This document shows positions 7,200 to 43,006 of a stretch of DNA of 64,000 nucleotides, piece by piece; the first letter of the stretch is position 1, and each line of letters opens with the position of its first letter. The translations under genes and the position numbers were made by a program. This DNA is from a virus, in IMG/VR virus record IMGVR_UViG_3300032132_000001, positions 42,573 to 106,572 of that record; one strand, written 5' to 3'. Under the pieces are notes generated by a model. The model worked only from the letters and a program-made list of their open reading frames with translations. It searched no databases and had not been told where the DNA came from.

Positions 7200-7524
7200 T
7201 CTCTTCTACCCACTTGAGGAAAGATGCTTTCATTGCAGGTTTGTTGTTTGTGTACTGGACGCATAGGCGGAACAAAGAGATGTTAGACACCATAGATGTT
7301 CCAAGCATATCTGTTTCCCTGATTTTCTTCAGCAAAAGCTGAAGCTCTGGCCTATATACGGCGATGCCTTCATCTACTTTCTTTTGGTAAGCATCGGTGA
7401 AATTTTCGCCGTCATAGTATTCACTGTCTACTGGTTGCCCTTCAGGGAAGATTGGCCTGAAGATTGTATTGATCGCATCCTCCTCGGCCTTATTCGGCAT
7501 TGGAAGGGGGAACTTGATCTCCAT
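7186..7524 (-). CDS. hypothetical protein
   Basis: track ORF. Confidence 0.4.
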   Translation of the reverse strand: MEIKFPLPMPNKAEEDAINTIFRPIFPEGQPVDSEYYDGENFTDAYQKKVDEGIAVYRPELQLLLKKIRETDMLGTSMVSNISLFRLCVQYTNNKPAMKASFLKWVEENEQR

Positions 7525-8200
7525 CTTTTTCCTTTTTCTCTGGGAGTTTCCACTCTAGGCCAGGGATCTCGAAGATGATGTCTTCGGGGCGACCACGCAT
7601 CATTTCATCCAGACAGACGTGAACAGTGCGGTGACCCTTCACCTGGAACTCTTTCTTCTGGTGATAGTGACCGAAGATCCAATACTCAGGCTTCCACCCC
7701 TCCCACTCCCACATCTGCTGGAACACAGCTTCGTTGCAGGAAACATAGTCGATCTTCAGCGCTGAGTTGGCAACCCAGGGCTTAGCGTCACTGTGGATTT
7801 CATGGGTGACCACAATACGAGGCTTGACCTCTTGGTACAAAGCCAAAGCAGCCATAGCTTGGGCGTAGGTCAGCTCTTCATCCGGCCACCAGTCCCGACC
7901 AATGGTCCGGTGCATGTGGTCGATAGAGTATCCGCCACCAGCGTAGAAGATCCCGGTGTGCTCATCGTACCCAAAATCACCAAGATAGTGGGACGCCCGC
8001 TTGCAGACCGAAGGATTGTCATGGTTGCCCCGGATGAAGCGATGCATCTTAGGATCGCGCTTTCCGAGCTTGTGCAGATTCCCACCCCGGAATAGCCCAA
8101 AGTCACCAACCTGGAGACTGTGCTTTCCTTCTTCGGTCAGTCGCTTTGTCAGCTTCCGCCATTGATTGTACTTGCCGTGCACATCACCGATGAAGATCAT
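7490..8200 (-). CDS. calcineurin-like metallophosphoesterase (PPP/ApaH-like fold)
   Basis: N-terminal IFIGDVHGK, later GNHD and GHYH metal-binding motifs. Confidence 0.7.
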   Translation of the reverse strand: MIFIGDVHGKYNQWRKLTKRLTEEGKHSLQVGDFGLFRGGNLHKLGKRDPKMHRFIRGNHDNPSVCKRASHYLGDFGYDEHTGIFYAGGGYSIDHMHRTIGRDWWPDEELTYAQAMAALALYQEVKPRIVVTHEIHSDAKPWVANSALKIDYVSCNEAVFQQMWEWEGWKPEYWIFGHYHQKKEFQVKGHRTVHVCLDEMMRGRPEDIIFEIPGLEWKLPEKKEKDGDQVPPSNAE

Positions 8201-8904
8201 TTTCCATATACCCTTCGAACGAAGTCCTCCACGAACGGTCCGATCTTATCGCTGTTGCGGTGGACTTCAAACTCGTCTAGCTTGATCGTATTTTTCTGGA
8301 TTGTAGTTTCCAGATCTGTGGAAATCTCATGCTGCCCTTGGACAACAGCTGTTTCTAAGAATTCGATTTTCACTGTGTCCCTGATCGTAGACTTGGAATC
8401 AAGATAGGCTTGCCCCATAGTCCCAGGATGAGAATACCAGATCAGAGGCATAGTCATGACCGAGATCTTCTCATCTTCGATCTGATTGACAGGAGTCATA
8501 GTCTGGAGACCCATGGCGAGCTTGAACCTCTCAATAGTCTTCTCTGCCTTTGGGAAAAGAAGACATACCAGCTGGCCTAGATGCTCATAGAGGTGGAATT
8601 CGAACCACTCGGCTGGCTTGTTTTCAGACCAGTACCGAATGTGATCTACAATCGGACCGGCATGTGAATGCACGATAACCGGATTTGAGGTGTTAGTTGC
8701 CTCATCTAGCATCCAGATGAGCGCATCACATTGTGTCAGCATCTCGTGCTTGTCTAGATCTGCTTTCTGTAGCTCCTCCTCTGAGAGAAGGTGGCCAGAT
8801 TCCCCCACTAGAAGCGGGACATAGGAGATGCAGACGTATTTTCCCTCAGGCATCGAACACTTCCTGAAATGGGCCGATGAACTGCTTATCATCGGAGGTG
8901 TCAA
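8197..8904 (-). CDS. hypothetical protein (possible hydrolase)
   Basis: track ORF; VIVHSHAGPIV segment. Confidence 0.4.
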   Translation of the reverse strand: MTPPMISSSSAHFRKCSMPEGKYVCISYVPLLVGESGHLLSEEELQKADLDKHEMLTQCDALIWMLDEATNTSNPVIVHSHAGPIVDHIRYWSENKPAEWFEFHLYEHLGQLVCLLFPKAEKTIERFKLAMGLQTMTPVNQIEDEKISVMTMPLIWYSHPGTMGQAYLDSKSTIRDTVKIEFLETAVVQGQHEISTDLETTIQKNTIKLDEFEVHRNSDKIGPFVEDFVRRVYGK

Positions 8905-9679
8905 GGATTGCGAAGATCACGTCGTGGAATGCACCATCGAACTCGCCGGTAAGGAACTCGTGGAACCATTGGGCTACATCGGCCCCGTTGTTTCCAAAGA
9001 CGCCGCACCCCCATGCACCAAGAACTAGCTGGTCCTGGCCCTTATGGACCGCAAGGGTAAGCATCTTTCGCATTCGCTCTTGCATGACCGGATCGGCTTG
9101 GTCCAGCAAGCTTTCATCCAGCGACCCCTTGTTCACCGCTGGGGTCGTCAGATAGTTGAAGTTCCTTGGGGCGATCAATTGGTCATAATCGTTCCTGAAT
9201 GTTGGAACTTCAGGAGAGAAGATCATATGATCGCTGTACAGTCTGCTCTCTGTACGATTGAAGTCGTACATCTCTTTGTGAACAGTTAGTGTGGGGTAGA
9301 GCGCAGAACCGCGCGCCAGACACTCTTCCTGCGCTTGCGCGCCACGGATGAACCCACCACCTGGATGCGTACCAGATGCGAAGTTCAAAATCATGATCTC
9401 TGCATCTTCGCCATGTCTTTCAGATAGGCGATAGGCAGCAGAGAAAGAAGATTCGTTCACCACTTGGAATTGTGTGTCGTAAGGCATCGGCTGGTCACCC
9501 AACATGCCACGCAAGTCCACTAATGTCTCAGGTCCAAGGAGCTGAGACGAATCGGTGGCCCACTCTATCGCATCTTGGATGTCATGTACCTCACCATTCA
9601 TATCCTTGTATTTTCCTTGGATGATGATGGTGAGAGTCTCTTGAGCGATTTTGGCCAACTTTCTACGTTGTTTTGTCAT
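8846..9679 (-). CDS. bacterial-type poly(ADP-ribose) glycohydrolase (PARG/DUF2263 macrodomain)
   Basis: LNFASGTHPGGGFIRGAQAQEE carries the GGG-X7-QEE PARG signature. Confidence 0.75.
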   Translation of the reverse strand: MTKQRRKLAKIAQETLTIIIQGKYKDMNGEVHDIQDAIEWATDSSQLLGPETLVDLRGMLGDQPMPYDTQFQVVNESSFSAAYRLSERHGEDAEIMILNFASGTHPGGGFIRGAQAQEECLARGSALYPTLTVHKEMYDFNRTESRLYSDHMIFSPEVPTFRNDYDQLIAPRNFNYLTTPAVNKGSLDESLLDQADPVMQERMRKMLTLAVHKGQDQLVLGAWGCGVFGNNGADVAQWFHEFLTGEFDGAFHDVIFAILDTSDDKQFIGPFQEVFDA

Positions 9680-9693
9680 TTGATCTCCTTTAA

Positions 9694-9767
9694 TGAGAGC
9701 GCTGGGATTCGAACCCAGGACCTACAGATTAAAAGTCTGTTGCTCTAACCAGCTGAGCTACGCTCCC
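9694..9767 (-). tRNA. tRNA-Lys (anticodon TTT)
   Basis: cloverleaf GGGAGCGTAGCTCAGCTGGTTAGAGCAACAGACTTTTAATCTGT...; loop CTTTTAA. Confidence 0.85.
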
Positions 9768-10379: not shown

Positions 10380-10718
10380 CTAACTATCGTGTCCTTCTGG
10401 GTCCCACGGTTTGTACACCACATGCTTGAAACTCTGGCTAGAGCGATGGAGTATCCTTTCTTTCCGCTCTACCAGGCAAGCGTCACAAACGAAGATTTCC
10501 AGACTGTAGTCCGACCCAATTGCCATGTTAGGATCAAACACAGTGGAGCCATAATGGCCCCATGTGTAGAATGCTGTAGCACCATGGGGCTGGAAGCCGT
10601 ACAGCTCTTCGTCGTCCGTACTATTAGGACGACCAATAGCGTCTTCCAGCTTCTTCTCGCAGATGAGACAGCACATCTGGAACTCTGGAGCCTGGTGTTT
10701 GTCGTGGCGATCTCGCAT
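10380..10718 (-). CDS. Cys-rich hypothetical protein
   Basis: track ORF. Confidence 0.4.
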   Translation of the reverse strand: MRDRHDKHQAPEFQMCCLICEKKLEDAIGRPNSTDDEELYGFQPHGATAFYTWGHYGSTVFDPNMAIGSDYSLEIFVCDACLVERKERILHRSSQSFKHVVYKPWDPEGHDS

Positions 10719-10767
10719 CTCTTTCAGATACCGCGCCCACCACTAAATGGCCACTAACTGTGGCTAC

Positions 10768-11013
10768 TCAGTCGCTGCTGTCATAGTTCGCTTTATAGAG
10801 AACGAGCTTCCCTTCAGGACCTTGACGGTACCAAACATCACCCTTGATTGGGTTCTCATCTTCAGTGACGTCCTTGAAGCGCGCGCGAGCGACCCCGATA
10901 GCCTTGATTGCTTCGGAATCCCCGCCTTCTACCAACGCAAGCTCAAAGTCTCGCATGGTCTGCTTGGTGACGTTGCCAGTAGAAGTCCACTGGTCTACGA
11001 CTAGGACTTTCAT
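10768..11013 (-). CDS. hypothetical protein
   Basis: track ORF. Confidence 0.4.
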   Translation of the reverse strand: MKVLVVDQWTSTGNVTKQTMRDFELALVEGGDSEAIKAIGVARARFKDVTEDENPIKGDVWYRQGPEGKLVLYKANYDSSD

Positions 11014-11699
11014 TGCTTCACCTTGGTTTTCTCCCAGCTTCCAACGTCGGGGAAGTCATAGTCTTCAGGGAAGGAGCGACAGTAGCCACACAAGGCAAGA
11101 TACCAAGTGCGGTGACCGCTCGACCCACCCTTCCTATGGATGAGGACGTCGATCTTTCCCCACTGCTTGCAAACCCGACACTTCAGTCGCCTTTGGTGGA
11201 GGGGCTTTGCAGACTTGATACCATGGTAGGTGACGTAGAATCGATTGTACGATCCGCCACCAACCAGATGTCCGGGGGTGCTATCGACGATGTTGAATCC
11301 GAAGTCTGCTTTCTCACCAGTCAGCTCACACTTCTGGTGGCTCACATAGCTCGGTGGGATCAGGCCAGGCCCAAGTTCAGCTAGCGAGACGTACCTGTTC
11401 CATCTATGGGACACCCTCATGTGCCGGGAAAGCCCCCGAAGTTCTACGTTGGAGATATCCATTGATGGAAATTCTTCCGGTGAGAGGGTCTCTACGAAAG
11501 CGGCGTTCTGCCTTCCCCATACGTAGAGTCCATCTCCCTCAAAGAAGAGGTGGATGCGGAAATTGTCGATCGTCGATTCTGTATTCCAGGTGGGTCTTCG
11601 ATAGATACCCGCCCTGCTATCGGGAGCATAAGATTGGGCTTTGCTCAGGATTGTTACGCCCTTCTTACCTCGCCGTGCGAAGTAGAAATTTGTGAGCAT
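11010..11699 (-). CDS. hypothetical protein with C-terminal CxxC...CxxC zinc-ribbon
   Basis: track ORF; CRVCKQWGK ... CGYC. Confidence 0.45.
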   Translation of the reverse strand: MLTNFYFARRGKKGVTILSKAQSYAPDSRAGIYRRPTWNTESTIDNFRIHLFFEGDGLYVWGRQNAAFVETLSPEEFPSMDISNVELRGLSRHMRVSHRWNRYVSLAELGPGLIPPSYVSHQKCELTGEKADFGFNIVDSTPGHLVGGGSYNRFYVTYHGIKSAKPLHQRRLKCRVCKQWGKIDVLIHRKGGSSGHRTWYLALCGYCRSFPEDYDFPDVGSWEKTKVKQ

Positions 11700-12011: not shown

Positions 12012-12296
12012 TTAGATACCTTCGACTGAGGATTTGTACGTTTCAATCTCAGCTTGGCGGAAGTACGCTTCAACTTCACCTGGATCGTTCTTGGTATAGT
12101 CGGGGATCCAGACCCATTTTTCACCGTTGCACTTATTGCAGACCGCTTCTTTCGTCTTCCCTACGATCTTGCCTTCACCTTCGCAAACGGCACAGATATA
12201 TTTAGTGGTGACAAGGGAGATTTTCTTTTTCTTTACCGGCTTGGTTGTCCATTTGCCGTCCTTGTCCAGCCACATGTCGAACTCTACTGTTCTCAT
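12012..12296 (-). CDS. small Cys-rich hypothetical protein
   Basis: track ORF; CAVCEGEGK...CNKCNGEK. Confidence 0.4.
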   Translation of the reverse strand: MRTVEFDMWLDKDGKWTTKPVKKKKISLVTTKYICAVCEGEGKIVGKTKEAVCNKCNGEKWVWIPDYTKNDPGEVEAYFRQAEIETYKSSVEGI

Positions 12297-13630: not shown

Positions 13631-14179
13631 TTATCGTGTCTCTCCAAACGGAGATTGCATAGGACCCCTCTCCTCGGCAAGCTCAAGGATGGGAGTCCCA
13701 TTCATCACTTGTTTCAACATGCGGTCGTACAACACCATATAGACCGCAGCGCCCAGGTTCGCACAGTGGCGAATCGGGATCTTTACGAACCGATGGCAGT
13801 GCCTCATCATCGTGGATGAAATGCTGCCATCTTCTGGGCCAAACACGTACACCGGATTCTCTGGGTGTTCAAAGTCCGTGAGCAACTCAGAGTTATCCCT
13901 CAACTCGATTGCCACCGGGGTAGACCCCTGAGGGAATTGGTCGAAGGGGAAGTCGAACTGGATCATCTCCACGTCCTTGTATCCCTTCATCCTTTCTTCT
14001 CGTGGGAGCCGCTTCTTCCCGTCCAGCCGTACACGGTTGCCCGTCCACCAGAGTTGACTCAAGCCGAAGCAAGAACATGCCCTCAACGCAGCCCCGACGT
14101 TGTGGTCGTATTTTGGGTTGGTCAGGATGATAGCCGGGGTCTTTCCCACCGGCTTCATGTTCTTGCCGACTTGTTTCAT
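13631..14179 (-). CDS. SpoU/TrmH-family RNA 2'-O-methyltransferase (SPOUT)
   Basis: ILTNPKYDHNVGAALRACSCFG and YVFGPEDGSIS motifs of the TrmH family. Confidence 0.7.
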   Translation of the reverse strand: MKQVGKNMKPVGKTPAIILTNPKYDHNVGAALRACSCFGLSQLWWTGNRVRLDGKKRLPREERMKGYKDVEMIQFDFPFDQFPQGSTPVAIELRDNSELLTDFEHPENPVYVFGPEDGSISSTMMRHCHRFVKIPIRHCANLGAAVYMVLYDRMLKQVMNGTPILELAEERGPMQSPFGETR

Positions 14180-14188: not shown

Positions 14189-14839
14189 CTATGCTGCGTT
14201 TGGGTGCTTGAACGGTTTCTCTACCAGTAGATCAACAAATTCCTTGATCTGCCTGGCAACCTTGCCTCTTGGTGCGATGCTGAAGCGTTCGAACGCTTCC
14301 TCCTTGATCCACTTGCGCAGATCGGAGGCGAACTCATCCGAGCGAGCTTTCCAGTCACATACCATTTCGGCTATATAAACCCTCGGCATCTGGTCGACGC
14401 CGCCCCAGTATTCTGGGTGGTGAGCATTGGTCTTGACGTGCTGACGATGAGCCAGCTTTAGCTGGTCACTTGTTGCATTCTCGTGCAAGCATTCCCACTC
14501 AATGCCATAGAACTTGGAGTTATCGTGGATGAGGGAGTTGGCAATCAGGATCCGTCCAAGGTCCGTTTCTCCTCTCTCAATCAGCGCCATGCCCAACTTG
14601 TGTGCGCCATCTTGCACGAGCTTGATATGGCGCACCACAGCGTTTAGGTATCGAAGCTCTTCTTTGAGAAGGTCGTCGGTCCTTCGTTCAGGCAAGGCTA
14701 CTTTCTTTTTCGCCGTTGCCTTCTTCTTAGACCCCTTCTCAGCTTTACTCTCTTCATCTGACACAGGATGTACTCCTAGGAAGACCTGGCTATCAGGAGC
14801 CAATTGACTATCTACGTGCTTCTTGTGGCTCACCGACAA
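14189..14839 (-). CDS. hypothetical protein (possible HD-like metal site)
   Basis: track ORF; SLIHDNSKF...HRQHVKTNAHHPEYW. Confidence 0.4.
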   Translation of the reverse strand: MSVSHKKHVDSQLAPDSQVFLGVHPVSDEESKAEKGSKKKATAKKKVALPERRTDDLLKEELRYLNAVVRHIKLVQDGAHKLGMALIERGETDLGRILIANSLIHDNSKFYGIEWECLHENATSDQLKLAHRQHVKTNAHHPEYWGGVDQMPRVYIAEMVCDWKARSDEFASDLRKWIKEEAFERFSIAPRGKVARQIKEFVDLLVEKPFKHPNAA

Positions 14840-15086
14840 CCCTGCAAATAGAGCATACCGTATCTTCGTCTAGCCGATACAACCGCTCGATCTTCTTAAG
14901 TATTCCGCAGAATGTGCACCTCTTCGCAGTGCGTTCATTTACGCCTACGCCTGAGATACACACACTGCATAGCTTGACCAGCCTGTTGACGTGGAGGTCT
15001 TCACGACTGTTCGTATAGAAGCCTAAGATCGTGTTGAAGTAACACTCTTGGGCGCCTTCACCCTCTTGGCATTTGAAGCAGAGCAT
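14808..15086 (-). CDS. Cys-rich hypothetical protein
   Basis: track ORF. Confidence 0.4.
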   Translation of the reverse strand: MLCFKCQEGEGAQECYFNTILGFYTNSREDLHVNRLVKLCSVCISGVGVNERTAKRCTFCGILKKIERLYRLDEDTVCSICRVVGEPQEARR

Positions 15087-19987: not shown

Positions 19988-20815
19988 TCAGTCGTCTGTT
20001 TTTCCATTCGTATCAGATACGGCTGGAATAGTGATGACTTTGGCAACCATCGAGCGTTGAACTTCATCCACCAGAATCTTGTCTACTGTGCCACCATCAG
20101 GGATGTCCAGGTAAGCACGAGTGATTCCGATGATACGACGCTCTTCATGGGAAGCTAGCAGGACCATGATTGGGACTATCATCATGCCTAGGACCCAACC
20201 ATTCATCCAGCAAAAGGCGAATGTAGGAATCGCCGTTGCTCTTCCCACCCATTTGGTGATCCTAGTTGAGCGGAGTACGTCACCGTTCCAAACGGTAAGC
20301 ATAGACCTTACCACTCTACCACCGTCCATCGGCCAAATGGGAAGTATGTTGAACAAGACAAGCATGACGTTGATTTCAATGAAGAAAGACAACATCAGCA
20401 TGTAAGGGTGTGGAATAGGGAGGAGGACCAGCGGCAGAGTGAGTGCAACCAAGATGAGGTTGACTATTGGTCCTGCCACCGCTACTAAGAACTCCTTCCT
20501 TGGCTCGAAGACGTTCAACTCGACTTCGGCCATTCCACCTATGAAGACTAGGGTGATCGAATTGCACTTCCACCCTAACCCCTTGGCTGCCCAGACATGG
20601 CCAATTTCGTGGAGTGTGACTACAAACCACACCACTGCCATGAACGGGATGACCTTCCAAGCGCCCATCGCCAAGAGGACCGCACAAAATATGAAGAGTG
20701 AGCTGCCAATTATAATCGGCACACCCATTACGGTTGCTATCTGCCTCTCCCTGAATAACTCAAGCAAGTGGAGAGGAGACAATACGATCTTGACGAGGAG
20801 CTTGGTTTTATCCAT
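19988..20815 (-). CDS. M50-family site-2 protease-like integral membrane metallopeptidase
   Basis: HEIGH zinc motif in a TM helix plus LPIWPMDGGRV second motif. Confidence 0.7.
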   Translation of the reverse strand: MDKTKLLVKIVLSPLHLLELFRERQIATVMGVPIIIGSSLFIFCAVLLAMGAWKVIPFMAVVWFVVTLHEIGHVWAAKGLGWKCNSITLVFIGGMAEVELNVFEPRKEFLVAVAGPIVNLILVALTLPLVLLPIPHPYMLMLSFFIEINVMLVLFNILPIWPMDGGRVVRSMLTVWNGDVLRSTRITKWVGRATAIPTFAFCWMNGWVLGMMIVPIMVLLASHEERRIIGITRAYLDIPDGGTVDKILVDEVQRSMVAKVITIPAVSDTNGKTDD

Positions 20816-21923: not shown

Positions 21924-22328
21924 TTACAGGTCCGCGTCCTCCGTGCCCTGGCCCGGAGCCACATACAGCAGGCTCTTCACCTTGACGACGATCTCATCGC
22001 CCTGAGTGGTCGCATCCAGCATCGCCTGGAAGTGCTTCCGGGTCGTACCGGTCTGGTGCTCCCGGCCCTTGCGGGTACCGAGATGGATGATGTAGTGGTC
22101 ACCCCACACCAGCTCCAGCTTCTTGCGACCGTAGGACGCGTACAGGACCGCGTACCCCTCGTCCTTACGCGGAGCGTGGAACGGCGGCGCCTCTTCGGGG
22201 TCGAGCTTGGCCTTCTTCAAGCCACGCTTGCCCTGAGTCTGCGCCAGGGGGAGCAACTGTGAGGTGGTCTCGCGACCACCATCGATGCGGAACGAGTCCT
22301 GCGACGTACGAATAAGAGTAAGTTCCAT
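21924..22328 (-). CDS. P-family paralog 3 (EHQTG core, TEDADL tail)
   Basis: track ORF; GGAGGTG RBS; followed by hairpin GGCGGGGAGGTTTTACCCTCCCCGCC. Confidence 0.5.
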   Translation of the reverse strand: MELTLIRTSQDSFRIDGGRETTSQLLPLAQTQGKRGLKKAKLDPEEAPPFHAPRKDEGYAVLYASYGRKKLELVWGDHYIIHLGTRKGREHQTGTTRKHFQAMLDATTQGDEIVVKVKSLLYVAPGQGTEDADL

Positions 22329-22814: not shown

Positions 22815-23429
22815 TTAGGATGATTCTTCTCTTTCAGCGTCGAGCAGCACCAACAGCGCTGCTTCGTAGCGCTTCTCGATCCCTTCCATTCCAGGAGGGC
22901 GAGGCCGTGAGAGATTCTCGTTGAGGTCGGCACGCTTCACCTTGCGGGCGTCGGGATCGGTGACGGCACGGAGGATGTACTCTCTGTACGTCTCCTTCTC
23001 TTTGTCCCGTGTCACCAGCATGACCACTTCTGCGACCCGCTCGCCGAAGTTCTCTCTCACGTATTGCTCTGTGAGGAGTCCGTCTTCTACTGTGTCGTGG
23101 AGGACTGCAGCCATCATCACGACATCGGACTCACCCTTGCAGCGGTTGAGAACCGAGAGGGGGTGGAGAATCTCAGGTAGCCCGATCTTGTCTTGGCGTC
23201 CACCGTGAGCAACTATGGCAGCCAAGATCGCTCGTTCTAGGAGTGTCAAATCTGCTTCTGGCATTGTCTCTCTCATTCCTTGTCTCAGATCTGCTAGACA
23301 CTCCTTGCAGACCACCAAATTGGTCTTACCGTCGAACTCATCCTTGGTAAGCCGGTTCTTCAGCATTACACGGCAGAACCAGCAAAGGAGAGCGCCGTTG
23401 CCTGCGTTGAACTTAACTCTTGGGTGCAT
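22815..23429 (-). CDS. HD-domain (p)ppGpp-hydrolase-like small alarmone hydrolase with N-terminal Cys4 zinc ribbon
   Basis: MMAAVLHDTVEDG matches RelA/SpoT/Mesh1 HD signature; N-term CWFC...CKEC. Confidence 0.6.
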   Translation of the reverse strand: MHPRVKFNAGNGALLCWFCRVMLKNRLTKDEFDGKTNLVVCKECLADLRQGMRETMPEADLTLLERAILAAIVAHGGRQDKIGLPEILHPLSVLNRCKGESDVVMMAAVLHDTVEDGLLTEQYVRENFGERVAEVVMLVTRDKEKETYREYILRAVTDPDARKVKRADLNENLSRPRPPGMEGIEKRYEAALLVLLDAEREESS

Positions 23430-23596
23430 TTATTTGTACAGAGTAGTTTCTTCTACTCGCATATCGTTCTCGTCGAACAGGCTGGCCCCGTACTCCGCCT
23501 CTAGCTTCTGACGAAGAGCTTCCTTCTGAGGAACTGTTGGCTCAGCCAAGAAAACAGCAAATGGGCTATAGCCAACCATCACAACATATGCTTGCA

Positions 23597-23815
23597 TTAT
23601 TTCTTCCGATATGTGATGCGACCCTTAGTCAAGTCATACGGTGATAGCTCAACCGTTACCTGATCACCAGGGAGCACCTTGATGTAGTTCTTGCGCATCT
23701 TGCCTGAGAGGTGGCACATAACCACATTGCCGCCCTCCAACATGACACGGAACCGCGTGTTAGGTAACGCCTCGGTCACCTCGCCTTCTACGACAATCGG
23801 TTCTTCTTTAGCCAC
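23597..23815 (-). CDS. infA: translation initiation factor IF-1
   Basis: 72 aa near full-length match to bacterial IF1 ([23 protein letters not shown]...[34 protein letters not shown]). Confidence 0.9.
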
Positions 23816-23820
23816 TGTCC

Positions 23821-24399
23821 TTAGTCCTTGATGGTATACTTCTTGTAGAGTTCAACATCGTTCAGCTGACTGTGAATCTCTTCGGCCCAGAGGTGAGATG
23901 CCCCACTGCCATCCTCCCCGACACCAGGCTCGTTCTTGGAGGTCCAGACCGCGAAGTTCCAATACGGCGGGAACTTCTCATTGTTGTATCGTTGCACCAT
24001 CCCACGGAACTGCTGCCATGGGACACCGTGCTTCTGTCGGCGGTACGCCGTCATCGGATCGACCGGGATCTCAATGATTTCGTGGCCGTACCCGAAAGAG
24101 TTGGCGACCGAGATGTACGGTGCAAGCTCGATAGCACCGAGGTTCGTGTTATCCACGATCACGAACTTGAACTGGTTGCCAAGCGCTTCGATATACTTGC
24201 TCATGCATCGAGCGTGCGCTTGAGGCAGCTTGCCTCGCTTGAAGTCGTACTTCAAGCTTCCGTCTTCCTCTTCGCTGTAGAAGAAGTGGTCGGCTGACAC
24301 CACGACCACACTCCCTTTGCTTCTCTTCTCGATGATCAACTTCTTCACCAAGGTGGACTTCCCTCCACCTGGTACGCTCCTCGGCAGAATAACGTGCAT
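23821..24399 (-). CDS. P-loop kinase, polynucleotide 5'-kinase-like (AAA_33/T4 Pnk kinase-domain-like)
   Basis: Walker A PGGGKST, downstream VVSADHF and VIVDNTNL. Confidence 0.55.
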
Positions 24400-24885
24400 A
24401 GTTCCTTACCTCTCCTTAACTTGCCGCACCGGGCCTTTGCTTGCCCCACACAACCTCGACGCGCCGCACCAGACCGCTTATCGCTTCGTATGATTCTTTG
24501 GGACATCCGGAATGTCGAACCACCAGATAACATCAACCGGGTTGAGCTGCTGACGGAAGTGGTCATAGTACTGAATTCCATCGAACAACACAACCTTCCT
24601 AACTAGCGGTGGGTTGTCAGAATCTCGATATGCGATCAAGATCTGTTTCAATACTGGCGGTACAACTTTTCTCGGACATTTCCACATAGAGACTCCTGTC
24701 TGAAGGAAGGTGGTGAGACCCAGGGTCTGCACAACTGGGGAGCTTTATTGCAGTCGCCTAAATAAGAGGCCGCACCTTATCTCCCTGGTCCTATGACCGG
24801 CATCCCACTGGACTCAACGTCCAGGTGTCGTGCCCACGGTTCGTGCCCCGCAGGGTCCACGCAATCTCACCACCCTTGAAGTTAT

Positions 24886-25509
24886 CTAGCTAACTTGCTC
24901 TTCACCCTTGTACAGACAGGACACGATCTTGAAGGTCCCGTAAGGGCCAGGGCTGGGAGAGCTGGGTCGGTAGTCACCGATGCCCTTGCGTCGTCCAGCG
25001 ACCTCCATGCAGTTGATCAGACCTTCGACGGTGACTTCTTCACCGGTCATCATCAACTGGAACGCGAGACGCCAACCTGCCGGCATCTTCGTACGATAGC
25101 GGTACTGGTGACCGCCACCCTTCAACTTGACGTGGCGCTGGTCGATCCAACCACGCTTCTCCACGTCCTCCAGCTTGAATGGCTTCCCGTCCCAGAGGAA
25201 CCGGGGCATTTCAGGCAGGATGTAAGTGCAGGCCGGGATCAGCGTCTTGTAGGTCTCTCGACCTGACGCCTTGACCTTCGCACCAGCAGACGAGAGACAC
25301 CGAGCGAGGTTGGCGAAGGGGACGACGACAAACCCTTCGGCGTCCGTGTACGTCTTCACTTTCCACTCGTCGGGATCACCCATCACTGCCGATCCTGTCT
25401 TTTTCTGCTTCCCCTCGGTGTCAACCACCGCAAAAGCATTGAGGAGACAAGGCTGGTAGCCTTCGATGATGAAATCAAGATGCTCATTGTCCATGATGGA
25501 CTCCTTCAC
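24886..25509 (-). CDS. hypothetical protein
   Basis: track ORF; long GGTNAGG-repeat leader upstream. Confidence 0.45.
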   Translation of the reverse strand: MKESIMDNEHLDFIIEGYQPCLLNAFAVVDTEGKQKKTGSAVMGDPDEWKVKTYTDAEGFVVVPFANLARCLSSAGAKVKASGRETYKTLIPACTYILPEMPRFLWDGKPFKLEDVEKRGWIDQRHVKLKGGGHQYRYRTKMPAGWRLAFQLMMTGEEVTVEGLINCMEVAGRRKGIGDYRPSSPSPGPYGTFKIVSCLYKGEEQVS

Positions 25510-25606
25510 TTCCCCATTTGGGGAGAACCATAGTGCCTTACCGCACCGTGCCGAATCTGACCGCGCCTGACCATACTCTACCTGACCGGGCCCGGCCGCG
25601 CCCTAC

Positions 25607-26149
25607 CTAATCGGGTTGCTTCCCACGCCGACGCCGTTGGCGCCTGCTTGGAAGAGGCGGCTTCACTTCGCCGCTCTGCTTGGAACGACGTTCCAGAGCA
25701 GTGACGCGCTCTTCTAGATCATCGGATTTGCGTTCTTGTTCTCGCATCCGATTGTCCAACTCAATGATGGCGTTAGTCATCACGTATTGGTCGCCCTTGA
25801 CTGATTTCAGCTGCTCTTCAGTCAAGTTCTGTTTGTCTACGTGGGTCGCTTCATGCTGACCCTTCTTCAGCTGCCGCCGCGCTCTCTTGCGACGCAACTT
25901 GATCATCGCTGGGACATCCTCAGGAATCGCGATTTTATACCCCACCCTGGGTACGTTCTTCGCGATAGTCCCAATTTCCTCTACCAGACGATGGTTGGCT
26001 GTGTAGAACGGGCTGCGTCCAGACTTGAATTCCCGCCCTAAGAGTTCATCCAGCTGTGCGTACGTGACGACATCGCCGGGTTCCTTATCCTTGAGGAAGT
26101 TGAAGATCATCTCAGCTTCCGCAACATCACCTTTTGGTGTAAATGGCAT
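25607..26149 (-). CDS. hypothetical protein with basic coiled-coil C-terminus
   Basis: track ORF. Confidence 0.45.
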   Translation of the reverse strand: MPFTPKGDVAEAEMIFNFLKDKEPGDVVTYAQLDELLGREFKSGRSPFYTANHRLVEEIGTIAKNVPRVGYKIAIPEDVPAMIKLRRKRARRQLKKGQHEATHVDKQNLTEEQLKSVKGDQYVMTNAIIELDNRMREQERKSDDLEERVTALERRSKQSGEVKPPLPSRRQRRRRGKQPD

Positions 26150-26820
26150 TAGATCTTGTCCTTCAGACGCCCAGCAATATAACTGAGCGCTTTGATATCG
26201 ATGACCCTAGAGCTTACCGCTTTGCGCAGAGCCAGAGAGACAGCGATTGCCGGATCTTCTTCTTGCGGGATAAGCATCGCCTTATCCTTCCAATACTCGC
26301 AAGACTCACGCATCGCCCTTTCGAACTCGACGGGTGACATCATGGTGTCGGTGCCACCGTCCATCCCAAAGTGGTTGGCACAGAGAGTCATAGGGTGGAT
26401 TGGCTCCGGTCCCTCGGTTGCACGAGCGTTGACTGAGACAATCTCCCAGTTTCCTGGGCTTGCGGGTTGTTCGTTGTCACCGTCCTCAGCAAGCACGATG
26501 CTCTCATAAAGGATGATGTCCACGGCCTTGGCTGGAAGGGCTGCACCAGGCGTCCTCACCTGCTTGCGGGGCTCTTCCCCCTCCCGCCGAGCCTCGTATC
26601 GCCCGATAAGCCTGGCTCCAGGCTCCAGCTTGGTCACACCAGAGTAGATGCCGTCCGGTATGATGGGGACGACGAGGACACCGTTCCGGTATCCGGCCCC
26701 AGCATATCCGAAACGTGAAATAGTCCGCCGGATTACCTCTTCCCAGGAGACCTCTGGATAAGAAAATCCAGTTCCCTTGTAATGTCGGTTCCTTGCGAAC
26801 GAGTTAACGATGATTTTCAT
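26149..26820 (-). CDS. hypothetical protein
   Basis: track ORF trimmed to MKIIVNSF (ATG 26818-26820). Confidence 0.45.
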   Translation of the reverse strand: MKIIVNSFARNRHYKGTGFSYPEVSWEEVIRRTISRFGYAGAGYRNGVLVVPIIPDGIYSGVTKLEPGARLIGRYEARREGEEPRKQVRTPGAALPAKAVDIILYESIVLAEDGDNEQPASPGNWEIVSVNARATEGPEPIHPMTLCANHFGMDGGTDTMMSPVEFERAMRESCEYWKDKAMLIPQEEDPAIAVSLALRKAVSSRVIDIKALSYIAGRLKDKI

Positions 26821-26979
26821 TGACCTTTCCTTGGTTTGCTCCGGGTGAGGTGCCACTTCCAACAGTACGGACACTCATAAGTGTACAGCTTCATTGTACG
26901 GCCAGCTGCATCTTTTAGTGCGTCCTGTTCTGTGTTGTGCGCCACTTTACCCTTACAGGTCTTCTTGTAATCGAAACTG

Positions 26980-27399
26980 CTATTGAAGTCCATCGTTCAA
27001 CGATTCTATCACGTCAGCAACCATTGGATGTTCTAGTTCGCTCGCCAAACTCAATTCGCCTTCCAATCTATCGACTCCCTTATGGGTGTCTCCGACCTTC
27101 CTTGCCAGCTCACCTTGAAGCATGGCAATTTTTCGGCGAATCTCATCTTTCCTCTTCTCTCTTGCCCGATACTCTTTAATCTCGGTGCAAGGATGCCTTT
27201 CTTGTTCGGCTTTATAGTTGGGTACGAATTGCAGTTCGTACCCACATAAGAATTGTCTGTTCTCCCATCTTGTCCCGTTGGTGTGATATCTGATCTCGCG
27301 CGACTGGTGGTAGGGATAAGAAGAAATACCAATCTCTTCTTTCACCACCTCTTCACACTCACAATGAGGACAAGCTGCAGTTGTGACAAATTTCAGCAT
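26980..27399 (-). CDS. Cys-containing hypothetical protein
   Basis: track ORF. Confidence 0.45.
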   Translation of the reverse strand: MLKFVTTAACPHCECEEVVKEEIGISSYPYHQSREIRYHTNGTRWENRQFLCGYELQFVPNYKAEQERHPCTEIKEYRAREKRKDEIRRKIAMLQGELARKVGDTHKGVDRLEGELSLASELEHPMVADVIESLNDGLQ

Positions 27400-27656
27400 T
27401 AGTCTTTCTGATGATCTTCCGGATCTTGTTTGCCGTGGTAGATGAAGTAAGCTGTCATACCCGCAACGACCAGAGCCATAACGATCCCAATGACCATTGT
27501 GAAACCGGCTGCTTCTTGGTAGTACTTCACATCATCGAAATGGGAACATCCAGCAGCCCCTGCCCAGATGAACATCACCACGACGATTGAAGCTTTGATC
27601 AGGGTGCGGATCACTTCAAACTGTTGAGAGTGAGTCACCTTTTCAGAATAGCTCAT
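27399..27656 (-). CDS. small membrane protein (2 TM)
   Basis: track ORF. Confidence 0.45.
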   Translation of the reverse strand: MSYSEKVTHSQQFEVIRTLIKASIVVVMFIWAGAAGCSHFDDVKYYQEAAGFTMVIGIVMALVVAGMTAYFIYHGKQDPEDHQKD

Positions 27657-29020
27657 TTCAACTCCTTCTTAGCCCATTCCATGGCCGATTCTTGGTCAGC
27701 GAAGGCTCCGTCCATCTGAGCTTCGTACGCTTTCTTCAGAAATACGCCAAGCTCTTTACTAGGCTCCATCAGCCCAGCCTCGATCAGATCACGGCCGTTG
27801 AGGATTCGCTTCGCGCCTTCATTGAGCACGCGCTTCTCACTTGCGATCTCAAGCATCCGAAGGCAGTTCTCCGACTTCCCACGAGGAAGAGGGGGGCGAC
27901 CAGAGTGGTCAGCTTCACACAGCCGTGCAAGCTCTACGATGCTCGCCGGCTCCAAACGCTTGGCAAGACGACGGACAGCTCTCGACGTAGCCGCTTGGTT
28001 GTGCGCCATGTGGTTCCCGACCATGGGCAGGATCTTATCCTTGTACTTCTTGTGACACCCAATTGAGTCCAGGAACTCTTCTGCGATAGGCACACCACCA
28101 CGCTCATGACCACGTGATCTCCACCTGCCATCTTCGAACTTGGTGTACTTTGCCTTGCCGACGTCATGGCACAGAGCGGACAGCACCAACATGCCACGAT
28201 CTTCCACATCAAGCTCGTCACGGATGGCGATTTCTGCTGCGGCATCGACCACGAACTTGGTATGAGTCCAAGCGCAGCCTTCAGGATGCCACTCGGGATC
28301 CTGAGTCACTCCGATCAGAGCGGTGAGCTGCGGGTAGAGATCGAGCCAGCAGGTGTCCTCCAGGAAGACCAGGCCAGAGCTTGGTTTGATGGACTTTGTT
28401 GCCCATTTCCACCACTCTTCCCACACTCGCTCAACAGGAAGGTCTTTGTACTCATCCTTCAGCGTGTTGCAGAGATGCGACGTGTCTGCCCAGACCGCCA
28501 TGTCAAATCGCCCTGTGAACTGCATCCCTCGCAGCACACGAAGAGGATCTTCGGCGAAAGCTGGAGATGTGTGGCGGAGGAGACCGTACTCGATATCCTT
28601 CAGCCCTTTGAAGAAGTCCAGTGTCTCGCCGGTCAGTGGATCGAAGGCTAGGGCATTCATGGTGAAGTCCCTGCGAGACGCCGCTTCCTCCGGTGTCATC
28701 GTCGGGTCGGGGTCCACCATGAAGCCCTTATGCCCACGCCCTCGCTTGCTCTCTCGTCGGGGAAGAGAGACATCGAACTCAACGCCACCTTCCTTGTACT
28801 TGAGTACGCCGAAGCTCTTGCCTACCGCATCGACCTTGCCCTTAGATTCCAGGAGTTCTTGGAGCTTATCGGGGCTCATGCCGTAGACTTCGACGTCGAT
28901 GTCCTTCCAGTCCTTGTTTCCCATCTGGGAATCTCGGACGGCACCGCCCACAACCAGGACACGGGCAGCGCCGTTCTCGGTCAGGTACCGAGCTAGTTCC
29001 TTGATCTTTTTCATGTCCAT
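27653..29020 (-). CDS. cca: tRNA nucleotidyltransferase (CCA-adding enzyme), class II head domain plus HD domain
   Basis: VVGGAVRD...DIDVEV head motifs, RRDFTMNA, HD..GK; start moved to MDMKK (ATG 29018-29020) after GAGGTG. Confidence 0.8.
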   Translation of the reverse strand: MDMKKIKELARYLTENGAARVLVVGGAVRDSQMGNKDWKDIDVEVYGMSPDKLQELLESKGKVDAVGKSFGVLKYKEGGVEFDVSLPRRESKRGRGHKGFMVDPDPTMTPEEAASRRDFTMNALAFDPLTGETLDFFKGLKDIEYGLLRHTSPAFAEDPLRVLRGMQFTGRFDMAVWADTSHLCNTLKDEYKDLPVERVWEEWWKWATKSIKPSSGLVFLEDTCWLDLYPQLTALIGVTQDPEWHPEGCAWTHTKFVVDAAAEIAIRDELDVEDRGMLVLSALCHDVGKAKYTKFEDGRWRSRGHERGGVPIAEEFLDSIGCHKKYKDKILPMVGNHMAHNQAATSRAVRRLAKRLEPASIVELARLCEADHSGRPPLPRGKSENCLRMLEIASEKRVLNEGAKRILNGRDLIEAGLMEPSKELGVFLKKAYEAQMDGAFADQESAMEWAKKELK

Positions 29021-30227: not shown

Positions 30228-30485
30228 CTAGCCCTTGGACTTCTTGCCCTTCTTTCCCTTCTTGCCCTTCTTCTTCGGCTTGGGCTCATCGCCCTCTTCC
30301 TCAGAAGTCTCCTCCTTGGGAGCCGTCTTCTTCTTGATGGCCTCAGCGTATCGCTTTCGGCCAGTGCCTTTGCACCAGTTCAAGAACCAAGGACTAGGAA
30401 GCCCAGGGCCTCCCTCCACCGTCTTGATTGCATCATCTGGGTGCATCTCACCAGAGCGCACCAACTCTCTAAGACCCTTTGCCAT
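30228..30485 (-). CDS. hypothetical protein with poly-Lys C-terminal tail
   Basis: track ORF. Confidence 0.4.
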   Translation of the reverse strand: MAKGLRELVRSGEMHPDDAIKTVEGGPGLPSPWFLNWCKGTGRKRYAEAIKKKTAPKEETSEEEGDEPKPKKKGKKGKKGKKSKG

Positions 30486-30855
30486 CCTCGCCTCCCCATA
30501 GGAGATTCTCTACAATGTCGCCGAAATCGTTTCTCATGATGTCACAATCAACGATGGGCACACCATATTCTTCCAGTAACGCCTTCTGCTTGCCCCGCCC
30601 AGACGGGTTGTTGGAACACAGCAAAACTGGAATACTTAGCTCGACCAGGAATTTCTCAGCCACCAACATGCCACTCATCAGCGGCATATCGTGATCAAGA
30701 ATGATCAGGTCCCAAGGGTACGGCACCCTACGGAGGTAGAAGTCACACTGCTCGTCGCCATGGGCGAAAACCAGCGTCAAGTATCTCCGCTCCAGAAGGT
30801 GCCGTATCTTGGTGAACCGGATCGGCTGGTCGTCGATCCAGAGCACATGTTTCAT
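30469..30855 (-). CDS. stand-alone CheY-like receiver (REC) domain protein
   Basis: VLWIDDQ..., phospho-acceptor-like ILDHDMPLMSG, LLCS, conserved Lys region. Confidence 0.6.
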   Translation of the reverse strand: MKHVLWIDDQPIRFTKIRHLLERRYLTLVFAHGDEQCDFYLRRVPYPWDLIILDHDMPLMSGMLVAEKFLVELSIPVLLCSNNPSGRGKQKALLEEYGVPIVDCDIMRNDFGDIVENLLWGGEDGKGS

Positions 30856-35827: not shown

Positions 35828-36021
35828 TCCATCCTCATCAGCATGCTGTAGATGTCCTCTACCGACAGCTTCTTCAGTTCCTTTCGCTTCTCACCAGGGA
35901 AGTGTGCCTTCCCCGGCTCACTCAGGATCATGGCTATCGCCTTCTGACGGAACGCCGTGAGGCATTCCTGTCGGTACAGCTCCACGGCTTCGTTTAGTTG
36001 ATCTGCGAGCCAGACGTCCAT
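35824..36021 (-). CDS. hypothetical protein
   Basis: track ORF. Confidence 0.4.
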   Translation of the reverse strand: MDVWLADQLNEAVELYRQECLTAFRQKAIAMILSEPGKAHFPGEKRKELKKLSVEDIYSMLMRME

Positions 36022-37178
36022 TAAGCATCTTCTCCTTCGTCGTGGAACGCGATGCCGCCGGTCGGCTTCAACATCTTCCAGATCTGCTCCTCGATCATCC
36101 GTCCGTCCAGCAAGCTGAACATGAGATGAGGATGGGTGCAGTTTTCCTTGATGTAGAGCGCTTGATCCTTCCGAGTGTCGGTCGGACCCTGAGGGACCTT
36201 CTTGATCTCGTTGGACGCCGCGAACCGGATCCGGTGAGCCGCCTCGTACAAGCCCATCGCCGTCTCAGTGAGCCAGTGATGGAACTCGTCCGGAACATCG
36301 ACGCCCAGGAGGATGTCCTCCTTGACCGTACCACCAGTCTTGAGGACTTCCCAGATCCGGCGAGGGGTCAGACCACAGAGGAGCTTGTGGCGGATCTTGT
36401 ACCACTCGAACTTGATCTTGATCCGCTGACCCGACGAGAACTTGAGGACGAAGCCCTCTCGGTTCTCTTCGTCCATCGCGTCGAGCTGAGCCGGGGTGAG
36501 GTGTTCGAGATCGTACCGCTTGCAGATCTCGAATAGCTGCTCGTTCTCCTGGTCTAGCCCAGTTGTACCATGCTGGATGCTCGTTTCACCCCAGGTGACG
36601 AATGTCGCCAGCTGCTCATAGGGGACTTCTGAACCGGACTCGGTGTGAATCACGGTCAGGAGGGTGAGCTTAGTGTTCGGACCGTAGTCAACCACGATCT
36701 GAGGCCGACCACCTTCCTTGGCGTAGATCACCTCGAAAAGGTAGGTGTAGTCGTGATGGAAAACGTCTTGAGGAAGAGCGTGGGCCGGGCAACAAACCCG
36801 GAGCAATTCTTCCCGACCGATCACCGATTGGTCCGAAGTGAAGCTACCTCGGGTCGCCGTCACCAGCTCACCCTTGTAGACGCAGGCGATGAACAGCGAA
36901 CCGTCCATCTTCTCCATCACCTCGAAGGTCTCGTTGGGTGCTTCCACCTCACCGAGGTTGAAGAACTTGCCGAAAGGACGTCCAACGATCTCCTTCGGCT
37001 TCCCGGTCTTCTCGGGGTCGGTCGTGATGAGACCGCGACACGTCTTGGTCGCCGCGTTCCACACCCGATCGAACTGCGTCTTTGGCGTGTAGTTGTGAAT
37101 GAGGAGAGGGAGGGTCGGATGGACCTGGGTCTTGATAAACCCTTCCTCTATCATCTTGTCAATCAGTTCCCAGTCCAT
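36021..37178 (-). CDS. ATP-dependent RNA ligase, T4 Rnl1 (gp63) family
   Basis: CRGLIT..GRPFGKFFNLGE...MEKMDGSL...EGFVLK...KIKFEWY align with Rnl1 CRGIMF..RPMEKFFNL..KEDGSL..EGYVAV..KIKSDWY; start MDWELIDK at 37176-37178 after GGAG. Confidence 0.8.
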   Translation of the reverse strand: MDWELIDKMIEEGFIKTQVHPTLPLLIHNYTPKTQFDRVWNAATKTCRGLITTDPEKTGKPKEIVGRPFGKFFNLGEVEAPNETFEVMEKMDGSLFIACVYKGELVTATRGSFTSDQSVIGREELLRVCCPAHALPQDVFHHDYTYLFEVIYAKEGGRPQIVVDYGPNTKLTLLTVIHTESGSEVPYEQLATFVTWGETSIQHGTTGLDQENEQLFEICKRYDLEHLTPAQLDAMDEENREGFVLKFSSGQRIKIKFEWYKIRHKLLCGLTPRRIWEVLKTGGTVKEDILLGVDVPDEFHHWLTETAMGLYEAAHRIRFAASNEIKKVPQGPTDTRKDQALYIKENCTHPHLMFSLLDGRMIEEQIWKMLKPTGGIAFHDEGEDA

Positions 37179-37180
37179 GG

Positions 37181-37441
37181 TTATTTCTCCACGTGCTCGC
37201 GTTCTGCGAGAATGCCCTTGATCAGGTCGTACCTCTCTTGCCAGCTCCGATAGCGGGCAGCATCTCCTTCGACCCAATCTTCATACGCAGCTGCACCACA
37301 ACCACAACTGCACTTTGAGGAAGAACTTCTGAGTGCCCTGACTTTCTTGAAGACGGCAAGAAGGCGCTTGGTAGGCAACTTCCTCAACTGCTCTTCCTTC
37401 AAGTCCAATGCGCCTTGGGGTTCCATGGTCGTCTCCAACAT
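37181..37441 (-). CDS. small hypothetical protein (start at motif ATG MLETTMEPQ, or 37426)
   Basis: track ORF trimmed. Confidence 0.4.
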   Translation of the reverse strand: MLETTMEPQGALDLKEEQLRKLPTKRLLAVFKKVRALRSSSSKCSCGCGAAAYEDWVEGDAARYRSWQERYDLIKGILAEREHVEK

Positions 37442-39266: not shown

Positions 39267-39342
39267 TGGCGGGTCATACGGGATTTGAACCCGCAACACA
39301 CGGTTTTAGAGACCGTTGCTCTACCAATTGAGCTAATGACCC
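39267..39342 (-). tRNA. amber-suppressor tRNA (anticodon CTA, reads UAG), class I, CCA encoded
   Basis: GGGTCATTAGCTCAATTGGTAGAGCAACGGTCTCTAAAACCGTGTGTTGCGGGTTCAAATCCCGTATGACCCGCCA; perfect 5-bp anticodon stem ACGGT/ACCGT, loop CTCTAAA. Confidence 0.75.
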
Positions 39343-42254: not shown

Positions 42255-42497
42255 TCACTCTCCTTTGCAGCGGAAGGGGATCTTGGAGCAACCGAAGAGT
42301 ACGTTGCCGAAGATCAGGTACCAGTGGAGCCCGTCCTTGACAGCCGAGTTCAGCATGATCCCAACCAGCGTGTCGGCGCACATGGAGTTGGTTTTCCCTC
42401 CACCGTCTCCGTTGTCGTAGTAGGCGGTCAAGTGGTGGCCGATGCTATCCTTGATCTCGGCCACAGTTGACACCCCACTGTGCAGCTCGCGGCTCAT
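42255..42497 (-). CDS. hypothetical protein
   Basis: track ORF. Confidence 0.35.
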   Translation of the reverse strand: MSRELHSGVSTVAEIKDSIGHHLTAYYDNGDGGGKTNSMCADTLVGIMLNSAVKDGLHWYLIFGNVLFGCSKIPFRCKGE

Positions 42498-42928
42498 GCT
42501 TCCGCCCCGATCAGCTTACCGTCGAGATGGTCCATCTCGTGCTGCATCACCCTGGCTTCCCACGGTGACTGGGACTGGTGCCGCTTCTTCCGTCCCTTGG
42601 AGTCCTCGTACTCGATGAGGACGATGGGGAAGCGCAACACCTTGACGGCCCTGTCGGGGAGGGAGAGGCAGCCTTCGATGGCGTACTCCCGCTTGCCCCT
42701 GGCCCTGTGCAACACAGGGTTGAAGAAGACGCGTTCCATCCCCTTCACCCCACTGGCGTTCATCACGAAGAACCGCCGAGTGATGCCAACCTGCGGTGCG
42801 GCCAGACCAGCTCCGTTCGCCGCATACATCAGGCCGATCATCTCACGGACGGTATCGTCGTGGACGCTTGGATCCGCATGGGAGCACACTTGCTCCAGCA
42901 CAGGATCCGGATGGATGACGATTTTCAT
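42494..42928 (-). CDS. def: peptide deformylase
   Basis: GxGLAAPQVG, EGCLSLP and HEMDHL motifs; start MKIVIHPD at 42926-42928 behind GGAGG. Confidence 0.85.
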   Translation of the reverse strand: MKIVIHPDPVLEQVCSHADPSVHDDTVREMIGLMYAANGAGLAAPQVGITRRFFVMNASGVKGMERVFFNPVLHRARGKREYAIEGCLSLPDRAVKVLRFPIVLIEYEDSKGRKKRHQSQSPWEARVMQHEMDHLDGKLIGAEA

Positions 42929-43006
42929 CCTGGATTCCTCCTGTAGAGTCCTTTTCCAACAGGCTAAACCCCGTCCCAACATGGGACGGGCTTCAACCCT
43001 TGCCGA

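Follow-up and report, generated by a model that had tools for sequence, protein, structure and literature searches.

A putative Aph1-like small alarmone hydrolase within a tRNA-repair and translation island of a probable jumbo phage

Stand-alone small alarmone hydrolases (SAHs) of phages are known to counteract toxic small alarmone synthetases (toxSAS). PaSpo of Salmonella phage SSU5 and PbcSpo of phage PVP-SE1 each neutralised all five toxSAS tested, tRNA-pyrophosphorylating ones included, and phage SAHs were proposed to bypass alarmone-based defence (Jimmy et al. 2020, PMC7229694). Pyrophosphate added to the CCA end of a tRNA is taken off again by SAHs (Kurata et al. 2021, bioRxiv 10.1101/2021.04.30.441581), and the SSU5 SAH removes the modification made by FaRel2 (PMC11559606). 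A survey of jumbo phages lists HD enzymes of the alarmone type alongside CCA-adding enzymes, Thg1 and RNA ligases and interprets them as counter-defence or tRNA repair functions (Iyer et al. 2021, PMC7824862). Here we analyse an SAH gene at positions 22815-23429 (minus strand) of a 64,000-nt stretch of IMG/VR virus record IMGVR_UViG_3300032132_000001, called the window below. An original prediction made from this DNA had read the gene as an SAH possibly paired with a nearby CCA-adding enzyme against toxSAS. Among characterised relatives, the encoded protein most closely resembles Aph1, the (p)ppApp-specific SAH of a Bacteroides prophage, and its gene lies among genes for tRNA repair and translation.

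The SAH is a stand-alone, Aph1-like protein of 204 aa, as judged from HD_4, phmmer and profile matches to Aph1 (7smg) and Foldseek. Its open reading frame (ORF) is uninterrupted and encodes AAVLHDTVEDG at residues 107-117. Pfam HD_4 matches with 30.4 bits (gathering cut-off 27.2 bits; E = 3.7e-7), and Pfam detects no domain besides HD_4, hence no synthetase or regulatory domain. The predicted RelA/SpoT-type HD signature without a synthetase is thus present. NCBIfam SpoT/RelA models align to the SAH through their N-terminal hydrolase part (TIGR00691 N-terminal region, E = 1.5e-11), and PHROG 990, annotated as metal-dependent phosphohydrolase, matches at E = 5e-35. The best sequence match in the PDB is Aph1 (7smg; phmmer E = 3.5e-20, 15-sequence profile E = 5e-43), with MESH1 (phmmer E = 1e-8) and the hydrolase domains of Rel and SpoT ranking below it. 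Among phage enzymes, the protein is 33.5% identical to the SSU5 SAH (E = 2e-7) and 33.9% identical to the SAH of phage 4MG (E = 3e-10). Phage 4MG is a relative of PVP-SE1 from the same genus.

Structure prediction points to the same family. An AlphaFold2 model built on the 15-sequence alignment reaches a predicted local distance difference test score (pLDDT) >90 across most of residues 61-204, which together with residue conservation delimits the HD hydrolase domain (22818-23249, minus strand). Foldseek superposes the model on Aph1 7smg with a template modelling (TM) score of 0.85-0.87 and a root-mean-square deviation of ~2 Å over 141-144 residues, corresponding to the whole Aph1 chain, and on MESH1 with a TM score of 0.62. 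At E <= 1e-3, 27 PDB chains were recovered, and the best 50 matches listed were all hydrolases of the RelA/SpoT homologue (RSH) or SAH type. Foldseek therefore places the model inside the RelA/SpoT HD family, as the original prediction requires, and the protein is, on its modelled fold, a stand-alone hydrolase of this family. The catalytic set comprises H75, H89, H111-D112, E115-D116, D168, N172 and Y188. H89, H111, D112, E115 and D168 are invariant and D116 of the query is nearly invariant in the 15-sequence alignment, and the equivalent Aph1 columns are conserved at 97-100% in an alignment of 166 sequences. Every catalytic residue is intact. The SAH should be enzymatically active, because these residues are invariant or nearly so.

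The likely substrate can be approached through six residues defined as the Aph1 signature, D24, R96, D116, R119, K133 and Y134 (Ahmad et al., PMC10083569). The D24R/R119A double mutant of Aph1 gains ppGpp hydrolysis, and ppApp was hydrolysed by 12 of 12 tested Aph1 homologues (PMC10083569). BLASTP and MAFFT alignments map D24 to D80, R96 to R154, D116 to Ser174, R119 to R177, K133 to R187 and Y134 to Y188. Five of the six signature residues are kept, including both proven specificity residues, with K133 to R187 counted as conservative. The alignment near R177 borders a gap, and the match of R119 to R177 is moderately secure. Across the 166 homologues, D24, R96, K/R133 and Y134 are conserved at 91-96% and R119 at 66%. 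The protein is filed as Aph1-like with one signature feature deviating. Adenosine 3'-diphosphates are the most likely substrates, because the pocket carries the adenine-favouring Aph1 residues D80 and R177, and substrates of the adenosine 3'-di- or triphosphate type are proposed with moderate confidence.

The same family membership would also suit a different substrate. SpoT, Rel and MESH1 share the HD family with the SAH, and the gene lies among translation-boosting genes, such as those for initiation factor IF1, peptide deformylase (PDF) and tRNAs. The SAH might then act as a (p)ppGpp hydrolase that cancels the host stringent response and keeps rRNA transcription and translation high during infection. 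'HD-alarmone PDEases' of jumbo phages have been interpreted in this way (PMC7824862), and modest ppGpp activity was found for two of the 12 tested Aph1 homologues (PMC10083569). However, Aph1 itself, the closest characterised relative, has no detectable ppGpp activity. The SAH retains, as D80 and R177, both positions (D24 and R119) at which mutation lets Aph1 accept ppGpp, and the guanine-stacking arginines of Rel are replaced in the SAH as they are in Aph1 (PMC10083569). We thus consider (p)ppGpp hydrolysis unlikely to be the main function. A metabolic rather than defensive role would follow if the enzyme acted on another 3'-phosphorylated or 3'-pyrophosphorylated metabolite, such as NADPH or a PAPS-like compound, as reported for MESH1. 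The fold matches include structures of MESH1 with NADPH and with PAPS (5vxa, 9chy), and an orphan bacterial SAH has been described as promiscuous (PMC9765508). Yet MESH1 is clearly less similar to the SAH than Aph1 is (TM score 0.62 vs 0.85-0.87; E = 1e-8 vs 3.5e-20), and the SAH has the compact Aph1 length, which makes a metabolic role very improbable.

We suggest that the SAH is an Aph1-type adenosine 3'-pyrophosphohydrolase used for counter-defence or damage reversal against host RelA/SpoT-type toxins, an explanation to which we give slightly better than an even chance. The protein would be a compact enzyme of the Aph1 type that removes 3'-pyrophosphate from nucleotides in a metal-dependent manner. 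Solved relatives suggest that H89, H111, D112 and D168 bind the metal, that E115 and D116 activate the water, and that N172 and Y188 contact the ribose and pyrophosphate. The substrates would be (p)ppApp and, we infer, the pyrophosphorylated A76 of the tRNA 3' end. Because a tRNA pyrophosphorylated at its 3' end terminates in an adenosine 3'-diphosphate, an adenine-preferring SAH is a reasonable candidate to reverse this modification. The enzyme would undo the action of host toxins, either toxSAS (CapRel, FaRel2, FaRel) or Tas1-like effectors. It would act alongside a broader group of phage functions sustaining tRNA and translation, rather than as a specific partner of the CCA enzyme. A module with four cysteines (Cys4) at the N-terminus may direct the protein to a macromolecule, which is speculative. 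An anti-toxSAS role is plausible by analogy, because related stand-alone phage SAHs neutralised all five toxSAS assayed, and the idea is already published, having been proposed and partly tested in 2020. The capacity of stand-alone SAHs to counter toxSAS, on which the original prediction drew, is borne out by homologous phage SAHs that neutralise (pp)pApp-producing as well as tRNA-pyrophosphorylating toxSAS (PMC7229694; 10.1101/2021.04.30.441581; PMC11559606).

Several points weigh against this explanation. D116 of the Aph1 signature is not kept, with Ser174 in the SAH and the motif NL[ST]R in its clade, and the corresponding column holds D in only 48 of 166 aligned homologues (29%). The replacement of D116 by Ser174 leaves adenine specificity unsecured. 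Carrying an Aph1-type activity over to the tRNA 3' end relies on analogy. The clustering with translation genes may reflect a general accessory region of a giant phage. Finally, a phage-borne cognate toxin is possibly encoded elsewhere on the ~397-kb contig, 64 kb of which were covered.

A cognate toxin of this kind is central to a further alternative, in which the SAH is an immunity protein against a (p)ppApp-synthesising toxin of the phage itself. This is precisely what Aph1, the characterised protein closest to the SAH, does for the MuF-fused Apk2 toxin of a Bacteroides prophage (PMC10083569). The window covers 16% of the contig (397,419 bp), which leaves space for such a toxin gene. However, Pfam scans covering almost all window ORFs of 58 aa or more up to ~62 kb detected neither a RelA_SpoT synthetase nor a MuF domain. 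The neighbours of the SAH gene are IF1, a kinase and small ORFs without an assigned function, with no toxin among them. In the Aph1 study, only four of 1,181 homologues (0.4%) adjoin a MuF-domain gene (PMC10083569). An immunity function is thus improbable, and counter-defence against host toxins stays our preferred explanation. The element carrying the SAH is best read as a jumbo phage of ~400 kb, because the SAH protein is on record from a single contig of 397,419 bp, the window carries ten tRNA genes and many window genes match phage families in a PHROG profile search. The minus strand is densely filled with genes up to ~47 kb of the window.

The context of the SAH gene was compared with several sets of loci. 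The closest homologues of the protein are P0002 (76% identity) and P0003 (56%), and homologues at these same identities are encoded on two related contigs, the 4.5-kb L004 (76%) and L001 (56%). A single-protein scan of public viral contigs returned no close relatives. A profile scan of viral contigs yielded 80 other viral SAH loci, all at <=46% identity. A generic-pattern scan of metagenomes yielded a further 80 loci, mostly bacterial long RSH genes, with none above 46% identity.

A specific pairing of the SAH with the CCA-adding enzyme, the central idea of the original prediction, is not supported. The CCA gene itself is confirmed, as predicted. It encodes a class II CCA-adding enzyme with a C-terminal HD domain (27653-29020, minus strand), with a nucleotidyltransferase head (PolyA_pol, E = 4.4e-20), the HD domain (E = 1.5e-6) and a match to PRK10885 (E = 7.7e-55). 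The translation contains the motifs GGAVRD, RRDFTMNA and EDPLR. Its longest ORF begins at GTG 29113, and the likely start is ATG 29020. The SAH and CCA genes are separated by 4.2 kb with nine ORFs between them. No CCA homologue was found in L001 or L004, the L004 contig being only 4.5 kb long. Near the L001 SAH homologue there is no IF1 or CCA gene, and an RtcB gene lies 8.5 kb off. The order in L004 is L/F-transferase, IF1, Thg1 and SAH, so that a single gene, Thg1, separates the IF1 homologue from the SAH homologue downstream. SAH and IF1 are thus linked in two of the three related contigs. In none of the 80 other viral loci is the SAH accompanied within 10 kb by a homologue of CCA, IF1, Thg1 or Rnl1, and the 80 metagenome loci likewise showed no CCA homologue near the SAH. 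In addition, pyrophosphorylated tRNA could again be aminoacylated in vitro after treatment with MESH1 or ATfaRel, with no CCA enzyme added (bioRxiv 10.1101/2021.04.30.441581). The distance, the missing linkage elsewhere and the sufficiency of SAHs in vitro together speak against a dedicated pair.

The genes directly upstream of the SAH are more tightly arranged. A P-loop kinase (23821-24399, minus strand) belongs to AAA_33 (PF13671, E = 2.4e-10; phrog_2071, E = 1.4e-19) and has no phosphatase domain. Translation initiation factor IF1 (infA; 23597-23815, minus strand) is identified by the infA equivalog TIGR00008 (E = 5.6e-33, above cut-off) and PF01176 (E = 8.5e-27), in agreement with the original assignment. 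An ORF of 55 aa (23430-23597, minus strand) without Pfam or PHROG match follows, its start overlapping the IF1 stop and its stop abutting the SAH start. The order kinase, IF1, 55-aa ORF and SAH thus runs through a 5-nt gap, a start/stop overlap and an abutting TAA-ATG, a spacing that fits co-expression. A promoter and terminator scan of 20.5-30 kb gave counts at or below shuffle expectation and was uninformative on operon structure. The original description of the kinase as similar to polynucleotide kinase (PNK) holds in so far as a P-loop kinase is present, but its likeness to the T4 polynucleotide kinase domain is weak (PDB 1ly1/1ltq, E = 0.003-0.01, with 1ly1 at 0.0026; phrog_505 PNK, E = 4.2e-9). 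The 'thymidylate kinase' encoded beside the SAH of phage 4MG was considered as a counterpart and is unrelated to the window kinase.

On the downstream side, a protein of 134 aa without a detectable family (21924-22328, minus strand) is kept in both related contigs. Its homologues lie at 4058-4453 of L004 (81% identity) and 2851-3264 of L001 (51-53%). The SAH and the 134-aa protein are hence linked in three of three related phage contigs, with variable small ORFs between them. The 134-aa protein has no Pfam, PHROG or PDB match, and a homologue search returned only itself. A single-sequence AlphaFold2 model had a pLDDT of 39.6 and was unusable.

The original prediction also saw a theme of tRNA 3'-end maintenance in this region, and the gene content sustains it in a broader form. 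All the following genes are on the minus strand. Peptidyl-tRNA hydrolase PTH2 (1309-1683; PF01981, E = 3.6e-26) and a Thg1-like 3'-5' tRNA nucleotidyltransferase (6378-7199; PF04446, E = 3e-27) are found first. The Thg1 is 69% identical to the one directly upstream of the SAH in L004. A calcineurin-like metallophosphoesterase (7490-8200; PF00149, E = 7.6e-10) might be a candidate RNA end-healing phosphatase. A SpoU-family RNA 2'-O-methyltransferase (13631-14179; PF00588, E = 5.5e-15), a T4 Rnl1-type RNA ligase (36021-37277; PF09511, E = 3.4e-20) and PDF (42494-42982; PF01327, E = 1.1e-33) complete the set of enzymes. Ten tRNA genes are scattered between 2095 and 39342, as detected by ARAGORN and Rfam, and include Asp, Arg, Lys, three Leu, two Val, Asn and one with a CUA anticodon. 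Judging by these functions, the region is an island for translation and tRNA repair, similar to those surveyed in jumbo phages (Iyer et al., PMC7824862).

The tRNA genes also inform on the role of the CCA enzyme. The 3' CCA is encoded in nine of the ten genes, as read from their trailers, which leaves the CCA enzyme mainly a repair role in addition to the maturation of tRNA-Lys. This tRNA-Lys (9694-9767, minus strand) is the only one of the ten without an encoded CCA, has the trailer TTA and would require a CCA-adding enzyme for maturation. The tRNA at 39267-39342 (minus strand) has an encoded CCA and the anticodon CTA of the amber-suppressor type, labelled Pyl by ARAGORN. When TAG was read through, ORF-length statistics gave no clear verdict on stop-codon reassignment. 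Among the 80 viral SAH loci (L007-L086), 68 have a tRNA within 10 kb. After collapse at 60% identity, tRNA genes occur within 10 kb of the SAH in eight of 19 viral clusters, and six of these eight have at least four tRNAs. These counts come without a baseline and are suggestive of SAH genes being often located near tRNA arrays.

Additional features of the window include a microbial-type poly(ADP-ribose) glycohydrolase (PARG; 8846-9679, minus strand; Pfam scan, E = 6e-41). The PARG gene is one ORF from the metallophosphoesterase, itself close to Thg1, and the PARG and metallophosphoesterase pair may counter ADP-ribosylating defence systems. The Pfam scan further identified an M50 peptidase (19988-20815) and a receiver domain (30469-30855). 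The plus strand carries, at 47541-62549, a multi-copy paralogous family of at least 14 small ORFs (97-173 aa) with a common motif of the type DP[DS]F[NK]PDGI[VIL]. The family fills an arm of lower GC content (0.46-0.49) that starts at the strand switch near 47 kb, and it has no Pfam match except a short Gp23-like one in 58173-58637.

The N-terminus of the SAH sets it apart from its relatives. The original prediction of an N-terminal Cys4 zinc ribbon stands as far as the motif is concerned; the ribbon itself found no backing. The motif C16xxC19-x21-C41xxC44 (23298-23384, minus strand) is a putative zinc-binding module. A CxxC-CxxC motif arises in just 76 of 200,000 shuffles of the protein, and the motif is non-random. 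The full motif requires a start at ATG 23429, abutting the upstream TAA stop. The public gene call P0001 starts at M22, which removes the first CxxC and leaves half of the motif. The upstream start is supported because the motif is then complete and stop and start abut. No zinc-ribbon or other zinc-finger Pfam family matches the SAH N-terminus, even at E <= 10. AlphaFold gives pLDDT <50 for residues 1-40, with helices predicted there. A TraR/DksA-type or other zinc-finger identity for residues 1-61 was considered and rejected for lack of a Pfam match. We thus use 'zinc ribbon' for this N-terminus only as a possible description at the level of the motif.

The Cys4 extension is absent from P0002 (76%) and P0003 (56%), and from the SAH ORFs of the 80 viral and 80 metagenome loci. 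An exhaustive HMMER search recovered 12,293 homologous clusters, and among the 150 matches listed none reaches residues 1-30 of the SAH. An apparent N-terminal similarity to phage 4MG (tblastn, residues 8-181) was spurious, the 4MG frame before the annotated start being full of stops. Five better representatives (P0017, P0096, P0102, P0138 and P0149) carry non-homologous N-terminal CxxC...CxxC modules. The contig encoding P0096 is phage-like and also carries genes for DNA polymerase A, RecA and an Acb5-family protein. The Acb5-family protein is located at 10581-10793 of that contig (L167), ~10 kb from the Cys4-SAH homologue. A small Cys4 add-on appears at motif level to be a recurrent accessory of the SAH family, because these five representatives bear unrelated N-terminal Cys4 modules. 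In the literature searched, no paper links an alarmone hydrolase with a zinc ribbon. Within the window, a CxxC-x6-35-CxxC motif occurs in five of 135 ORFs (11010-11699, 12012-12296, 14808-15086, 22815-23429 and 50488-50835) versus 0.2 expected from shuffling, making small Cys4 modules unusually frequent in this phage.

The Cys4 add-on is the sole element that could reveal a new mechanism, for instance substrate targeting. In a scenario that we regard as rather unlikely, the fusion is a macromolecule-directed SAH whose zinc module docks onto tRNA or the ribosome for removal of the A76 3'-pyrophosphate, as one arm of a multi-enzyme tRNA-rescue island. In this same rather unlikely scenario, anticodon cleavage would be met by Rnl1, the kinase and the phosphoesterase, and CCA loss by the CCA enzyme. 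Likewise, 5' damage would be handled by Thg1, stalled peptidyl-tRNA by PTH2 and 3' pyrophosphorylation by the SAH. Cys4 modules on unrelated SAH lineages would then mark an undescribed subclass of tRNA-targeted SAHs. A confirmed hydrolase activity would, in any case, add a giant phage to the short list of phages with hydrolases that undo damage by RelA/SpoT-type toxins. Such a hydrolase would sit physically inside a large tRNA-repair and translation island, which would support the idea that large phages come fully equipped to keep tRNA usable under host attack.

Compared with known systems, the SAH is closest to Aph1 of the Bacteroides caccae prophage (PDB 7SMG, PMC10083569), likewise a compact stand-alone HD hydrolase of ~145 residues. 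The two proteins are 39% identical over 117 residues, have the catalytic and five of six signature residues in common and are both encoded on phage-type elements. Unlike Aph1, the SAH has Ser174 in place of D116, a loop before the C-terminal K/R-Y motif that is four residues shorter, and an N-terminal extension of ~57 residues with Cys4, and no adjacent toxin gene was found. MESH1 and ATfaRel share the fold and catalytic residues of the SAH and show that the family can act on the tRNA 3' end. Both are larger (~180 aa) and more distant (TM score 0.62; E = 1e-8), and MESH1 is promiscuous for ppGpp, ppApp and NADPH. Like the SAH, PaSpo and PbcSpo come from hydrolase-only RSH genes that stand alone on the genomes of lytic or large phages, and, as with these phage enzymes, the window scan found no toxSAS adjacent to the SAH. 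In contrast to PaSpo and PbcSpo, the SAH belongs to an uncultured phage of ~400 kb, carries the Cys4 extension and is set in an island of translation and tRNA-repair genes; the annotation around the 4MG homologue shows no comparable island. The jumbo-phage survey describes the HD-alarmone enzyme as a counter-nucleotide device and not as RNA repair (Iyer et al., PMC7824862), whereas the SAH described here is embedded among tRNA and translation genes.

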